This document shows positions 4,942 to 35,004 of a stretch of 64,000 nucleotides of DNA, piece after piece. Numbering within the stretch: the first letter of the stretch is position 1; every line of letters starts with the position of its first letter. Source of the stretch: an uncultured Gammaproteobacteria bacterium (GTDB taxonomy: Bacteria > Patescibacteriota > Patescibacteriia > UBA1558 > GWA2-36-10); assembly GCA_964604515.1 (NCBI GenBank), contig CAZRZA010000002.1, positions 1,607 through 65,606 of the forward strand, in the 5' to 3' direction. Made by a program: the position numbers and the translations under genes. The notes under the pieces were generated by a model. It saw only the letters and a list, made by a program, of their open reading frames with translations, was not told where the DNA came from and ran no database searches.

Positions 4942-5955
4942 ATGTCTGAAAGAGTAGTTTCTCCCCCGGAACAAGACAATGATAAGACTTGGGACTTAAC
5001 CTTAAGACCACAAAGTATTAAGGAGTATATGGGTCAAGAACAGGTTAAGGCTAATTTAGATATTGTTTTAAGAGCTGCTAAAGGAAGAAATGAGCCTTTA
5101 GATCATACTATATTTTTTGGACCCCCAGGCTTAGGTAAAACAACCTTAGCTCATATTATAGCTAAAGAAATGGGTGTTGGTATAAAAATTACTTCAGGAC
5201 CAACCATCACCAAAGCTGGAGACTTAGCAGCTATTATTACTAATTTACAAGAGGGAGACATTCTTTTTATTGATGAAATGCATAGATTAAACAAAACTAT
5301 TGAAGAGATATTATACCCGGCTATGGAAGACTTTGCCTTAGATATTATATTAGGAAAGGGTCCTTCAGCTCAAGTATTAAGATTAGACTTGCCTAAATTT
5401 ACTTTAATAGGAGCTACTACTAGATATAATTTAATTTCTTCTCCTCTTAGAGATAGGTTTGGCATTACTTTTCGTTTAGACTTCTATAAAGAAAATGAAT
5501 TAAGAGATATTATAAAAAGATCTTCAGATATTTTAGCTATTAAAACAAATAAAGAAGCCCAAAAAGAAATAGCTATACGTAGTAGAGCTACACCCCGTAT
5601 TGCTAATCGTATTTTGAAAAGAATTAGAGACTATGCTCAAGTTAAAGGAGTAAAAGAAATTAATAAACAGGTAGTACAAGAAGCTTTAGAATTAATGAAT
5701 ATAGACCAATATGGCTTAGATGAGATAGACAGAAAGTTATTAAGAATAATTGCGGATAATTTTAATGGTGGCCCAGTAGGTTTAAATACTTTAGCGGCCA
5801 CTCTCCAAGAAGAAGCAGGTACTATTGAAGAAATATTTGAACCATATTTAATGCAATTAGGATTATTAAATAGAACAGCTAAGGGCAGAATAGCAACAGC
5901 TAAAACATATAAATATTTAGGTTTAGAAATTCCAGAAGATAATAAATTATTATAA
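4942..5955 (+). CDS. ruvB: Holliday junction branch migration ATPase RuvB
   Basis: LRPQSIKEYMGQEQVK, Walker A GPPGLGKTTLA, Walker B DILFIDEMHRL, RuvB C-terminal winged helix. Confidence 0.95.
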   Translation: MSERVVSPPEQDNDKTWDLTLRPQSIKEYMGQEQVKANLDIVLRAAKGRNEPLDHTIFFGPPGLGKTTLAHIIAKEMGVGIKITSGPTITKAGDLAAIITNLQEGDILFIDEMHRLNKTIEEILYPAMEDFALDIILGKGPSAQVLRLDLPKFTLIGATTRYNLISSPLRDRFGITFRLDFYKENELRDIIKRSSDILAIKTNKEAQKEIAIRSRATPRIANRILKRIRDYAQVKGVKEINKQVVQEALELMNIDQYGLDEIDRKLLRIIADNFNGGPVGLNTLAATLQEEAGTIEEIFEPYLMQLGLLNRTAKGRIATAKTYKYLGLEIPEDNKLL

Positions 5956-6014
5956 TACAAATAGATTTATTTAATTATAATTTACTAGAAAAATTAATAG
6001 CTCAGAAATAAATT

Positions 6015-6040
6015 AAAAAACATGACAACTCATGTTTTTT
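6015..6040 (+). terminator. Rho-independent terminator after ruvB
   Basis: Hairpin acatga-caac-tcatgt followed by a T6 run. Confidence 0.6.
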
Positions 6041-6680
6041 AATTTTAAATAAGTAGAAAAGAAGTAAATAAAAAACCCCTATTGTTTTTTTATATTTTTG
6101 ATTATTTTTGATCAAAGATATTAATAGGGGTTTAAAACTTCTGTGTTTTTACTTAACTTTTTCCTGGGCTAAGTATTTTTCTCCTTTAATTATTTGAGCA
6201 GGTAGCTATTGAGGTGTTTCGCATCATCAAGGCTATCCAATACAATCCAATGAAGCGTACCTGCTCAAGTTACAATTACTTTTTGAGTTATAACAAAGTT
6301 TTTTATTTTATTTTTTTAAATAGTACTTTTTTTATTATTATCAACTATTTATATTTATTACTTTTTAGTATTAATCTTTATGAGATTATTTTACTTTTTT
6401 AGTTGAGTAACATTATAAAGTATTATTATTTTAAATGAACTTAATACATAATAAATTATACCACTTTTTTTTATTTTTGCCAATAATAATATAATAAATA
6501 GTATTTTATTAAATAAAAAACCCAGGTAAACCATAATCGTCCATCAACAATCTAAGGAGAAAATAGCTCTTGAACTTAGCTATTTATCTTTTAAAGTAGG
6601 CTTACCTGGGGAGTATTATTATTTAATGTACTTTTCTGACAAACCTATTCTAACATATATAAACAATACTGTCAATACCT

Positions 6681-7742
6681 TTAATTGAAATGAAAATAAA
6701 CAGTATCTCCGTCTTTTATTATATAATCTTTACCTTCCATTTTTATTAATCCTTTTTCTTTAGCATTTAACCAACTTTTAGCTTCTAATAGTTTTTGCCA
6801 ATTAATAACTTCTGCTCTAATAAAACCTTTAGCAAAATCAGTATGAATAACGCCAGCGGCTTGAGGAGCTTTATTTCCTCTCTCTATTGTCCAGGCTTTT
6901 GTTTCTTCTGGGCCAGTAGTAATAAAAGTAATTAAGTTTAATAAGCTATAACTAGTATTTATTAAATTATTTAAACCACTTTTTTTTATTCCTAATTCTT
7001 TTAAATATTCTTTACTATCTTCTTCATTTAAATCTGCTAAATCAGACTCTAATTTAGCACAAATACTTATAGTATTTTCTGGTAAATTAATTTCTTTTCC
7101 TAAATCATCTTCAGAAATATTATAAAGATATATAATTGGTTTAATACTTAAAAGATTTAATTGTTTTAATATTTTAAATTCCTCCTCTAACCATTCGATA
7201 CTATTTAATAATTTATTAGCCTCTAATAGTTCTCTTGCTTTTTCTAATACTCTTTTTTCTTCGTCTAAAGATTTATCATAATTACCTTTCATCTTACTAA
7301 TTATCTTTTCTAAATGTTTAGTAATAGTATCTAAATCAGCTAAGATTAATTCTAAATTAATAACTTCTTTATCATTTTCAGGATTTATTTCTCCTTGAAC
7401 ATGAATAATATCATCATTAATAAAATTACGAATAACCTGTATTAAAGCATCTACTTCCCTAATATGAGAAAGAAATTTATTACCCAAACCTTCTCCTTGA
7501 GAAGCCCCTTTTACTAAACCAGCAATATCTACAAATTCTATAGCAGTTGGTATAACTTTTTCAGAATTAGACATTTTAGCTAATTCTTCTAATCTTTTAT
7601 CAGGAACAGTAACAATACCGACATTAGGGTCAATAGTACAAAAAGGATAGTTCTCTGCGGCTACCTTATTTTTAGTTAAAGCTTGAAATATTGTTGATTT
7701 ACCAACATTAGGTAAACCTATTATTCCTAAAGAAAGTGACAT
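6681..7742 (-). CDS. ychF: ribosome-binding ATPase YchF (Obg-family GTPase)
   Basis: N-terminal G1 motif GLPNVGKST, coiled-coil insertion, C-terminal TGS domain. Confidence 0.9.
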   Translation of the reverse strand: MSLSLGIIGLPNVGKSTIFQALTKNKVAAENYPFCTIDPNVGIVTVPDKRLEELAKMSNSEKVIPTAIEFVDIAGLVKGASQGEGLGNKFLSHIREVDALIQVIRNFINDDIIHVQGEINPENDKEVINLELILADLDTITKHLEKIISKMKGNYDKSLDEEKRVLEKARELLEANKLLNSIEWLEEEFKILKQLNLLSIKPIIYLYNISEDDLGKEINLPENTISICAKLESDLADLNEEDSKEYLKELGIKKSGLNNLINTSYSLLNLITFITTGPEETKAWTIERGNKAPQAAGVIHTDFAKGFIRAEVINWQKLLEAKSWLNAKEKGLIKMEGKDYIIKDGDTVYFHFN

Positions 7743-29852: not shown

Positions 29853-29900
29853 ATATTTATTTATAATATCTTTATTATATCAAATAGGATGTTTTAAATC

Positions 29901-29937
29901 AAAGAAAAACCCAATTAAATTTAATTTAATTGGGTTT
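29901..29937 (-). terminator. Rho-independent terminator after small zinc-finger ORF (minus strand)
   Basis: aaacccaattaaa-tttaa-tttaattgggttt hairpin followed on the minus strand by tttttcttt. Confidence 0.5.
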
Positions 29938-29954
29938 ATAATTATAAAGAAGGT

Positions 29955-30182
29955 TTATTTGATGCTCACCTTACAGCCTGTACCACCGCAGCTATTACAA
30001 GGGTGAGTTATTGGTATAGTTTTTTCTCCAAAACATGTTCGGCATGTTTTAGTGCCACCAAAATATCTAATTTCTATACCATCACCATTACACTTTACAC
30101 ATAGTATAGACTCTGTCACTCCTTTACCATTGCCATCACAGTTAATACATTTTTCCTTTATTATTTCATATGCTTCAGCCAT
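29955..30182 (-). CDS. stand-alone DnaJ-type zinc-finger (4x CxxCxGxG) mini-protein
   Basis: 75 aa with CINCDGNG, CVKCNGDG, CRTCFGEK, CNSCGGTG. Confidence 0.5.
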   Translation of the reverse strand: MAEAYEIIKEKCINCDGNGKGVTESILCVKCNGDGIEIRYFGGTKTCRTCFGEKTIPITHPCNSCGGTGCKVSIK

Positions 30183-30203
30183 GCATTTCTCCTTTTGTTT
30201 ATT

Positions 30204-30431
30204 TTAAAATATTATTCCATCAACCTTTCCAGTACTATTACATCTATCACAGCCATTTTCTATTAATAGTTCTTTATGCCCATCACACTTAGTACATATT
30301 GTTATAATTTTTCTATATACACTAAAATTACCAGTACCATTACATTTTGGACACATTTTATAGTACTTATCTTTAGCACCAGTACCATTACAAAGTATAC
30401 AGTGTTTTTTTATTTTTCTGTATTTTACCAT
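30204..30431 (-). CDS. stand-alone DnaJ-type zinc-finger mini-protein (tandem paralog)
   Basis: 75 aa with CILCNGTG, CPKCNGTG, CTKCDGHK, CDRCNSTG. Confidence 0.5.
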   Translation of the reverse strand: MVKYRKIKKHCILCNGTGAKDKYYKMCPKCNGTGNFSVYRKIITICTKCDGHKELLIENGCDRCNSTGKVDGIIF

Positions 30432-30564
30432 TTACCTTCCTTTTTATTTAATGAACAATTACAATGAATTATTAGAATACTATAATATACTATATTTGTC
30501 AATGGGTGTTAATTGTTTAATTAAAAAAACTATTAAATAGTTACTTAACAGTTTTTTTATAGCT

Positions 30565-34061: not shown

Positions 34062-34351
34062 TAATATTATTAAAGCTATGAAGAGATATAGTTTTTCTTT
34101 TTTTATTAAAAACTTTGGTAATTGCTTTAATTGCTTCCAAGTTGGAACTTTATCATTACTTAGTTTAAACAGTAACTTTTTATTAGGGTCTTTTTCTGTA
34201 TAAACCTTATTAAATATAATTTTTAAGTATTTCTTTATCTTAGGATAAATAATATTAAAAATATTATTAGATTTTTGACCAATAAAAAATAAGAAATTTT
34301 TAATTTTTGAGTAATTAATCTTTATATTTTTGTTTTTAAACGTATAAATGT

Positions 34352-34570
34352 TTAATTAATAAATAGACTAGCTAAAGCAGTAGCTAGGAATATAAAACTA
34401 AGGATAATAGTAAGGCGGAAAATTGTTTTTTCAGCACCTCTTTTAGTACGATAAACAGTACTATCTCCTCCAAAAGTAGACCCTAAACCAGAGCCTTTTT
34501 GTTGTAGTAATATAATTATTATTAAAAATATTGATACAATAATTTGTACTATATATAATGTATTTTGCAT
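34352..34570 (-). CDS. secG: preprotein translocase subunit SecG
   Basis: 72 aa, two TM helices flanking the G-rich loop LQQKGSGLGSTFGG. Confidence 0.75.
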   Translation of the reverse strand: MQNTLYIVQIIVSIFLIIIILLQQKGSGLGSTFGGDSTVYRTKRGAEKTIFRLTIILSFIFLATALASLFIN

Positions 34571-34695
34571 AAAAAAGTTTACTCAATAGATATAGACTAA
34601 CAGAAAATTATTATTTTGTCAATACGCTTGACTAATACTACAGAAGGAGTAAGCTTGTATTTCATCTATTTAGTTCATTACAAAAGGAGAAAAAT

Positions 34696-34899
34696 ATGGA
34701 ACATTCTAAAAATAAATGGACCTGCCCTCACTGTGATCATAATGACAAACAGGAAGTGGTTGGTGTTAAAGAAACAGATTCAAGTCTAGCAGTATATAAA
34801 TGTAGTTCTTGTCAGGGGTTATTTACTATAGCTAGTGGTTGTGGATCATATACATCAGAAATACCATACAGAGGTCAGATTAAGAAAGAGGTTGGTTAA
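34696..34899 (+). CDS. small zinc-ribbon protein
   Basis: 67 aa with CPHC...CSSC pairs; SD aaaggag upstream. Confidence 0.4.
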   Translation: MEHSKNKWTCPHCDHNDKQEVVGVKETDSSLAVYKCSSCQGLFTIASGCGSYTSEIPYRGQIKKEVG

Positions 34900-34903
34900 A
34901 AAT

Positions 34904-34937
34904 AAAAGAGCTATTAAAAATAATAGCTCTTTTTTCT
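34904..34937 (+). terminator. Rho-independent terminator
   Basis: aaagagctatt-aaaaat-aatagctcttt followed by tttt. Confidence 0.6.
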
Positions 34938-35004
34938 TGAGGATTTAATTCTTGACTTAGTATTTTTTCTATGTTACTATTTCGAGGATTATTATATATA
35001 GTAT

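Follow-up and report, generated by a model that had tools for sequence, protein, structure and literature searches.

The ruvB (4942-5955, plus strand) and ychF (6681-7742, minus strand) open reading frames (ORFs) of the 64,000-nucleotide stretch analysed here (hereafter the window), which derives from an uncultured bacterium placed among the Patescibacteriota, converge on a spacer of 725 bp (5956-6680) running from stop codon to stop codon. The identities of both genes are backed by Pfam. An original prediction, made from the letters of this DNA, had described the spacer as very long, and it is indeed the longest convergent stretch of the window without an ORF of at least 90 aa and the third longest such stretch in any orientation, the median gap being 20.5 bp. 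The subject of this report is a compact hairpin within it, which we term E1 (6194-6268, 75 nt), and the family of phage-borne elements to which it belongs.

The outer stem of E1 (P1a) pairs TTGAGCAGGTA (6194-6204) perfectly with TACCTGCTCAA (6258-6268) over 11 bp; inside it G6257 of the plus strand is bulged and GCT (6205-6207) then pairs with AGC (6254-6256) to form a short extension (P1b). The perfect stem that had been predicted is therefore present, as 11 bp, a one-base bulge and 3 further pairs, and its location was given correctly, but the element ends at 6268 rather than 6270 and the loop between the arms then quoted is 49 nt rather than 53 nt. The elevated GC content was also correctly noted, at 44% for E1, 22.5% for the spacer and 28% for the window. 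Folding of E1 gives z = -3.9 on the plus strand and z = -3.6 on the minus strand, none of 200 shuffled sequences being equally stable, and the pattern CAGGTA-N30-60-TACCTG is observed once in the window where 0.02 occurrences are expected. BLAST, regular expressions and a covariance model run with filters off found no further copies in the window or in the loci of its relatives, an apparent half-site in one locus (L060) being a chance match inside coding sequence.

It is extremely unlikely that E1 is merely a chance hairpin or the intrinsic terminator of ruvB or ychF, the latter an explanation that the original prediction had itself raised. AT-rich spacers are rich in inverted repeats, and 83 inverted-repeat pairs were detected in this one, but no T-run follows the stem on either side (the sequence continues with AAGTTACA on the plus strand and AAATAATT on the minus strand) and a terminator scan over 5800-6800 returned no terminator-like site. 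ruvB is followed by a hairpin of its own, recognised earlier as its terminator (6010-6045, plus strand, perfect 16-bp A/T-rich arm, fold z = -7.0), and ychF by a promoter-like site and a second element, E2. Chance is excluded by the fold scores together with the orthologue covariation and the 80-member family described below. The overlapping 62-aa ORF (6214-6402), which had been judged to have no coding features, has no Pfam match and contains indels within its frame among orthologues; it is not coding, because its start lies inside E1, whose interior bears these indels. Small proteins encoded by this ORF and by a 47-aa ORF were rejected on the same two counts, the absence of Pfam matches and the breaking of their frames.

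No tRNA or tmRNA was found by ARAGORN over 5800-6800, and the Rfam/Infernal scan that had been proposed as a check matched no family: at gathering thresholds Rfam 15 recognises only tRNAs elsewhere in the window and nothing in the spacer, and at E <= 10 over 5900-6750 the best scores reach 15-24 bits where the thresholds are 40-65, and E is 1.6 or more. A replication terminus or origin with a dif site was rejected, as the cumulative GC skew climbs through the entire window without a turn at 6.3 kb, and inspection for a dif-like site or a cluster of DnaA boxes revealed nothing convincing.

Relatives of the locus were gathered through YchF homologues and the contigs encoding them. The names of the best YchF matches and the origins of the samples, TARA among them, point to a marine bacterium of Patescibacteria/Parcubacteria type. 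In the outgroups (75% YchF identity) ychF converges on a run of genes in the order queA, queH, ruvB and gyrA, whereas in the relatives L083-L090 (82-83% YchF identity) ychF is followed in the same direction by NYN-domain genes before queA, queH and ruvB are met in the opposite direction; one or two such NYN-domain genes have been gained by this sister clade between ychF and ruvB. In the window, in L091 (85% YchF identity) and in L092-095 (80%), ychF and ruvB directly adjoin one another, with spacers of 725, 624 and 673 bp, and these genomes form a single clade in the YchF tree. Judged from gene order, the window clade has lost queA and queH, genes of queuosine synthesis that are present between ychF and ruvB in all other relatives. 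The spacer is long because of this loss and because it contains two conserved non-coding units on the minus strand, Unit B and E2; the remaining sequence aligns among lineages better than the flanking genes do and is not debris. A pseudogene relic of queA, queH or the NYN gene was rejected, as the similarity that BLAST reports between 5929-6122 and the queH/queA junction (74-75%) overlaps with stronger matches elsewhere and resembles noise from AT-rich sequence. Two independent assemblies of the window's organism (L001 and L002) both break within ~140 nt in the 3' end of ruvB, beyond the spacer. Elsewhere in the window, the stretches 34062-35004 (943 bp) and 29853-30564 (712 bp) contain no ORF of at least 90 aa, no tRNA and no Rfam match.

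E1 is held at the same place by L091 and L092, with the stems GAGCAGATG/TGTCTGCTC and GAGCAGATA/TATTTGCTC, respectively. Among the three bacterial orthologues one G-C pair has changed to A-U and three more pairs have changed to G·U, which leaves them paired on the minus strand only; in the covariance-model alignment 98.3% of stem cells are paired and both-sided changes occur at 3 pairs. The inner strings CCUUGAUGAU and AACCUCAAU are invariant in all three orthologues, and the hairpin between them varies in both sequence and length. These lineages share merely 80-85% YchF identity, and each has kept the stem, both inner motifs and the tail. On these comparative grounds we show E1 to be a genuine selected structure that folds on the sense strand of its surroundings. 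In the conservation and covariation check suggested alongside the Rfam scan, the stem is kept through compensatory changes, and the view that E1 is not random spacer has been upheld by these changes and by the wide family. In the L083/L089 lineage the rest of Unit B is present at 85-86% identity without exactly the E1 hairpin, E1 was not found in the outgroups L256 and L088, and a comparison of E1 with the gene-bearing relatives gave no match. A single gain of E1 in the window clade is the simplest history on the YchF tree, and its loss in L083/L089 is left possible by a tree of the helicase.

On the minus strand E1 reads 5'-TTGAGCAGGTA-C-GCT ... AGC-TACCTGCTCAA-3', with the 5' arm of P1a at 6258-6268, the bulge at C6257 and the 5' strand of P1b (GCT) at 6254-6256; the 3' strand of P1b, AGC (6207-6205), runs into the 3' arm of P1a (6204-6194). 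The interior holds the motif CCTTGATGAT (6223-6232), which corresponds to the family consensus CUUGAUGR and is invariant in the window, L091 and L092, and the motif CACCTCAAT (6208-6216), which corresponds to the consensus WWCCNMAY and directly precedes the 3' strand of P1b. The stem is followed by the tail AAATAATTAAAGGAGAAAAATAC (6171-6193), comprising the A/U-rich tail of the family and then a Shine-Dalgarno-like AGGAG that is conserved in related genomes without a conserved ORF after it; in the window itself it is followed by no ORF.

This reading of the strand agrees with the surroundings of E1: a conserved promoter-like site precedes it and a conserved hairpin with a T-run comes after it, all in the same sense. 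The promoter-like site of Unit B (6455-6483, minus strand) is TTGGCA-17-TATAAT preceded by TG as in an extended -10 element, with 11 of 12 matches, and is conserved in L091, L092, L083, L089, L256 and L088, the outgroups included. The very AT-rich 5' part of the unit (6304-6450, minus strand) is 86% identical to L089/L083, near-invariant in L091/L092 and homologous in L256/L088; over 6304-6483 the sequence has only 10-15% G+C and is 86-95% identical among relatives, beyond the neighbouring protein genes. Single-base indels in 6304-6450 exclude coding. A hairpin in Unit B covaries, with UAAUCU/AGAUUA in the window and GCGCUU/AAGCGC in L256, and the fold of the whole unit gives z = -5.2. The stretch 6304-6483 looks like an old gene for a non-coding RNA in this group of Patescibacteria, with no match in Rfam. 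The same stretch also shows a long-range helix, CAACUA/UAGUUG.

The AT-rich part of Unit B is followed by E1, its AGGAG-containing tail, a small conserved hairpin (ACTTAGC-loop-GTTAAGT, 6151-6174, minus strand) and a larger hairpin, E0 (6070-6133, minus strand), which leads into TTTTTTATTT and folds with z = -6.4 on the plus strand and z = -3.9 on the minus strand. E0 contains the inverted repeat CCCCTATT/AATAGGGG, noted previously and found at 6076-6083 and 6123-6130, and shows compensatory changes to TCCCTGTT/AACAGGGA in L089/L083. Its inner helix is of 13 bp, all A/T, with an A-run on one side and a T-run on the other. In relatives E0 sits at the convergent junction of queA and Unit B, which makes a two-way terminator probable; E0 is the likely terminator of Unit B and may act bidirectionally.

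E1 proved to be one of many such elements. A scan of viral contigs for its two-arm pattern gave 44 matches, approximately the chance expectation, of which about 17 share much beyond the arms, and a more specific pattern run over metagenomes returned 112 stretches, all of them marine. The pooled scans comprise 81 distinct matched sequences of 60-87 nt. The shortest of these, a GC-rich match of 60 nt (L165), was regarded as chance and excluded, and the remaining 80 family members (61-87 nt) share motifs beyond the search pattern. Read in the sense of the window's minus strand, they possess a 10-11-bp stem of nearly fixed sequence, (U)UGAGCAGGUA / UACCUGCUCA(A), the extending U-A pair being present in 59 of 79 members. 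Proceeding inwards, this is followed by a bulged base that is C in 78 of 80, by the 3-bp extension P1b, which is GCU/AGC in 72 members and GUU/AAC in 8, and by a dinucleotide YC (74 of 80). No mixed form of P1b was found, although the pattern allowed it, so that this helix covaries perfectly in 80 sequences. The variable interior carries CUUGAUGR (TTGAT in 60 and the longer CTTGATG in 42 of the 80) and ends in CCNMAY in 44, and the stem gives way to a single-stranded tail, AAAAWUUUAA, with T at position +7 of this 3' flank in 72 of 79 members. An inner hairpin occurs as GUGC..GCAC in 9 members and GUGU..GCAC in 8 but never as GUGC..ACAC, which favours the same, sense strand.

A covariance model, R1, was built from 60 members. 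True members score 49-80 bits in the sense orientation and 18-30 bits in the opposite one, and chance matches to the pattern score 15-29 bits. In the window R1 gives E1 a score of 63.7 bits (E = 8e-15) on the minus strand, compared with 25.9 bits on the plus strand, E1 being its sole match in 64 kb, and the orthologues of L091 and L092 score 58.6 and 55.6 bits. The copy in the window accordingly has all the family features on one strand: P1a of the form GAGCAGGUA with the added U-A pair, the 1-nt bulge, P1b, both inner motifs and the A/U tail. No match to the family was found in Rfam 15, and on this basis it is a previously uncatalogued one. None of the isolated phages in GenBank carries an element of this type, and the terminase of one element-bearing locus is only ~29% identical to those of HMO-2011-type pelagiphages and roseophages. 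The arm sequences are printed nowhere in the open-access text searched, the only matches being unrelated primers.

The original prediction had proposed a small RNA, a riboswitch or a ribozyme, and we consider a stand-alone RNA of this kind improbable. E1 is certainly compact, with a long closing stem and conserved unpaired nucleotides, its UGAUGA-like and GAAAC strings recall ribozyme or box C cores, and the neighbouring E2 does resemble an independent small RNA or leader. However, no Rfam family matches at E <= 10, those for hammerhead, twister, pistol and hatchet ribozymes, riboswitches, 6S, SRP and tmRNA being absent from the spacer; E1 has no promoter or terminator of its own, and the interior of the family is too variable for a ligand pocket. 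The UGAUGR string is present in 48 of 80 members without a conserved CUGA, or GA before a stem, and both a hammerhead stem II between CUGAUGA and GAAA and a box D (CUGA) are lacking. The genes downstream of the phage elements are of many unrelated kinds, from ten or more families that include small proteins, an HNH endonuclease and a methylase, and this diversity speaks against a riboswitch. Inspection also covered an IHF site, a sigma-54 promoter, a sigma-70 promoter inside the loop, a K-turn, an 11-nt tetraloop receptor and a T7-type promoter, each of which failed on spacing or conserved positions.

The contigs that bear the element are real phages, with genes for DnaB helicase, methylases, terminase and HNH endonucleases at individual loci. 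Without exception the element is intergenic, in the same sense as its neighbours, and located in replication/recombination modules; domains recognised in 106 co-oriented neighbouring ORFs include DnaB (9), PD-(D/E)XK nuclease (9), methylases (7), Sak/ERF annealing proteins (7), RusA (3), primase-helicase and HNH. Its placement relative to these genes is tight. In 48 of 79 loci the end of a sense ORF lies no more than 20 nt upstream, and in 16 of these the UGA overlaps the first two bases of the stem; in 75 of 78 the start of a sense ORF lies no more than 200 nt downstream, mostly at 7-35 nt and often preceded by AGGAG ~10 nt after the stem. Usually, then, 0-20 nt separate the element from the stop codon upstream of it, and the next ribosome-binding site follows ~10 nt after its end; the opposite strand has no comparable pattern of stop and start spacing. 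Each viral contig (up to 62 kb) and each locus has a single copy, as does the window. In L112, L119, L141 and L157 it lies 22-23 nt upstream of a gene for a free-standing HNH/endonuclease VII-like homing endonuclease (312 aa in L112 and L119). Two further intergenic sequences of structured appearance recur nearby, neither with an Rfam match at E <= 0.01: GGTACCAAGGGACAAAAGGAAGTCGTTGAGGTTAGCTACCTCTTGAAGC..., ~10-100 nt after the element in L101, L155, L160, L174, L186 and L251, and a type GGGGAAG..GTCGGA..GAAACC..CCCC beside it in L154, L220, L235, L239, L224, L099 and L208.

Comparison of phage loci places the element at mosaic junctions. Near-identical elements can have unrelated flanks on one side or on both: L227 and L251 are 0.92 identical in the interior of the element and only 0.18 and 0.30 identical in the flanks, and L173 joins the upstream flank of L251 to the downstream flank of L227; L152/L204 and L155/L226 are further examples. 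The arms are identical between phages, which suggests that the element is a point at which flanking modules are exchanged, and such exchange could explain how a copy reached the bacterium. In other pairs of loci the flanks are alike on both sides and the arms identical, while the interiors are only 43-60% identical, and such divergence at a kept junction points to vertical retention under selection. The att-type or recombination site that had been suggested as an alternative can therefore be retained only in the weaker form of an exchange junction, as the lack of an integrase domain among all 106 neighbouring ORFs argues against an att site.

A selfish miniature mobile element, similar to miniature inverted-repeat transposable elements (MITEs) or REPINs and tolerated in one orientation without a function for its carrier, would account for terminal inverted repeats that are much better conserved than the interior, for the occurrence of the same element in unrelated contexts in phages and a bacterium, and for its clean presence or absence between clades, the outgroups being without it. 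We regard this as unlikely. The element is single-copy in 64 kb of host DNA, in every locus and in every viral contig, no transposase was found among the neighbouring ORFs, and its junction is kept in related phages while the interior diverges. Target-site duplication is unrecognisable, the filled and empty sites being too diverged and the TT..AA flanks inverted rather than direct, and the strand-specific inner motifs and tail are conserved.

We assign a probability of about 0.5 to the reading that E1 is a cis-acting RNA module recognised by a factor and marking a point of processing, stability or boundary in the transcript. RNA-level action, the existence of such a factor and a role in processing or stability are all inferred from the pattern of conservation and placement described above. 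The fixed stem and the two loop motifs would be recognised by a factor, of the host or of the phage, that binds or cleaves RNA. RNase E prefers RN|WUU, and the tail of the element would fit a site of this type; the hairpin could then serve as a 3' cap for the upstream RNA and provide a defined 5' end for the downstream RNA. The foot-to-foot placement between a stop codon on the 5' side and a ribosome-binding site on the 3' side would likewise fit a processing, stability or boundary signal. Exchange of modules at the identical arms could have brought a copy into the bacterium, where its compensatory retention inside a transcription unit in three lineages favours action as RNA over action as DNA.

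It is also possible, as the main rival reading and with rather less confidence, that the element is a signal at the level of DNA, namely a hairpin in single-stranded DNA (ssDNA) that constitutes a unique cis site of the replication/recombination module. Such a site might serve single-strand initiation, the loading of primase or helicase, or site-specific recombination, or might belong to an origin, and the copy in the bacterium would be a remnant of phage DNA. The single copy per viral contig and per locus suits such a site, as do the neighbouring DnaB, PD-(D/E)XK, methylase, Sak/ERF, RusA and primase-helicase genes, and the conservation of the arms beyond the needs of pairing, together with an invariant extrahelical base, resembles that of folded ssDNA sites. 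The element lies at mosaic junctions, the borders of its presence or absence in the bacterial relatives coincide with the hairpin ends, and queA and queH were lost at the same locus in the window clade. Nevertheless, a compensatory stem with motifs and tail kept in three lineages is hard to square with an inert remnant, and the copy in the bacterium has the same sense as the conserved transcription unit that surrounds it. The element also keeps a tight distance, on the sense strand only, from stop codons and ribosome-binding sites, which, like the conserved single-stranded tail, is an RNA-like feature; no integrase or recombinase is encoded nearby, and the GC skew of the window does not turn here.

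Several observations weigh against the RNA module proposed above. Transcription and its strand are deduced from consensus matches to promoters and terminators and from wobble pairs, and the inner hairpin of the window has an A·C mismatch on the minus strand where the plus strand has G·U. The interior shows no consistent secondary structure across the family, and minimum free energy folding slightly prefers the antisense strand in 10 of 14 members. Stem sequence is conserved far beyond what pairing needs, which would also suit a DNA- or ssDNA-binding protein, and covariation of P1a is seen only in the two bacterial orthologues. The apparent invariance of P1a among the phages is partly built in, because the patterns used to collect the family fix the stem, and a scan that left P1a free (TTGATG...CCGCAYARCT...AAWWTTT) returned only L100 and chance matches and so is uninformative on how the stem varies among phages. 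A general signal for processing or punctuation would not usually be present just once in a phage genome; a unique site such as an origin, a switch or an antiterminator explains the single copy at least as well, and taken with the replication-module setting it fits a unique DNA-level site about as well. Finally, both gain of E1 in the window clade and its loss in the sister clade are allowed by the trees.

The second conserved unit of the spacer, E2 (6512-6675, minus strand), makes up the rest of the spacer and has the promoter-like site TTGACA-17-TAGAAT (6675-6647) and a T-run at 6520-6515. Its branched structure (6611-6515, z = -4.3) is closed by a stem of 13-14 bp (CCCCAGGTAAGCC/GGTTTACCTGGG, 6611-6599 / 6532-6521) that is followed by TTTTTT; E2 is conserved in six lineages, with compensatory change at 5 of 14 pairs. 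The inner string TTTTCTCCTT / UUUUCUCCUU constitutes an anti-Shine-Dalgarno sequence, and in relatives E2 directly precedes the AGGAGG-ATG of the NYN gene, whose product is a predicted RNase. By analogy E2 may be a leader or attenuator-like element, or the RNA partner of a pair in the style of type III toxin-antitoxin systems. E2, the two promoter-like sites, the informative minus strand and the gene loss behind the length of the spacer had all escaped the original prediction. The anti-Shine-Dalgarno string UUUUCUCCUU is perfectly complementary over 10 nt, and 83% over 18 nt (6177-6194 versus 6546-6563), to AAGGAGAAAA, which lies 3' of E1 in Unit B, and hence the two spacer RNAs could pair. 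The arms of E2 (CAGGUA/UACCUG) and its UUGAUGG also resemble E1. Searching E2 of the window with R1 gave no match, and only a weak reverse-strand score of 21 bits was obtained over the E2-homologous region of L084, so that kinship of E2 with the E1 family stays an impression.

In a bolder extension, which we consider a long shot, the E1 family would be a new functional RNA class of marine phages and Patescibacteria-like hosts that either recruits a dedicated protein (a nuclease, an antiterminator or a replication factor) or is itself catalytic. E2, with its CAGGUA...UUGAUGR...UACCUG layout upstream of an NYN-ribonuclease gene in relatives, would then belong to the same system, and the phage copies would mimic or hijack an RNA/RNase circuit of the host. 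If the RNA module holds true, a widespread and easily recognised structured element, with more than 100 occurrences in ocean metagenomes and no entry in Rfam, would be added to the few conserved non-coding signals known from uncultured marine phages. It would also connect the phages' element with a non-coding RNA locus on the chromosome of marine Patescibacteria, a group with hardly any known regulatory RNAs. The family lends itself directly to testing through its 13-bp bulged stem of fixed sequence, its single copy, its strict orientation and its location in replication/recombination modules, and its presence at mosaic junctions bears on the shuffling of gene modules among phages. At the bacterial locus, a puzzling and seemingly empty spacer is accounted for by gene loss and by two conserved non-coding transcription units.

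Several known systems share features with E1-type elements. Intrinsic terminators differ in the T/U run, which follows neither arm here, riboswitches in a consistent class of downstream gene, and the hammerhead in its core, as only UGC separates UGAUGA from GAAAC in E1, GAAA is not conserved in the family and Rfam gives no match. Phage attP and bacterial attB sites are accompanied by an integrase, which is lacking here, and the phage elements resemble the host copy only in the family consensus. The attC sites of integrons, with R''/R' core sites RYYYAAC ... GTTRRRY, are alike in their conserved inverted ends, variable centre, extrahelical base, strand-specific folding and position after a cassette ORF; E1 ends in TTGAGCAGG...CCTGCTCAA in place of these core sites and occurs as one copy rather than in arrays, with no integrase among the 106 neighbours. 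MITEs, Correia-type elements and REPINs are palindromic elements with terminal inverted repeats, and E1 resembles them in size, in its 11-bp perfect arms and in its intergenic insertion polymorphism. It differs from them in being single-copy without target duplication, in its strand-specific interior motifs and in being kept at orthologous junctions.

Intercistronic hairpins at which RNase III or RNase E processes polycistronic phage mRNA include the R-sites of T7, with about ten per genome. E1-type elements are similarly sense-oriented between cistrons and upstream of the next ribosome-binding site, with a tail that fits the RNase E preference, but they are single-copy, their helix is only 13 bp with an irregular upper part, and a role in cleavage is conjectural. 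The stem-loop guide units of TIGR-Tas systems and box C/D RNAs are, like E1-type elements, found in phages and parasitic bacteria (PMC12045711). They share with E1 a closing stem around short motifs and variable segments, and E1 contains a UGAUGA string; E1-type elements are single units rather than arrays, with no Nop-domain Tas neighbour, no box D (conserved CUGA, or a UG/CCA pattern) and no duplicated motif pair.

The closest described analogue is the PeSL (promoter-early stem-loop) of T4-type phages, in which a sigma-70-like promoter (-35, N17, -10) lies beside a short terminator stem-loop and which occurs many times per genome in hyperplastic regions (PMC2839356; PMC4122927). E1-type elements differ in having no promoter at fixed spacing, the distance from TTGATG to a TATAGC/TATGAT-like hexamer being 8-16 nt among members, and in occurring once per locus and once per viral contig. 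They possess a 13-bp bulged stem around a 35-62-nt interior with motifs of their own (CUUGAUGR, CCNMAY and AAAAWUUUAA), and they are found in the siphovirus-like replication modules of a different phage group and, in addition, in a bacterial chromosome. Both are nevertheless short, conserved intergenic stem-loops oriented with the genes and, as the junctions of L227/L251, L152/L204, L155/L226 and L173 illustrate for the E1 type, both are located where modules have been exchanged.

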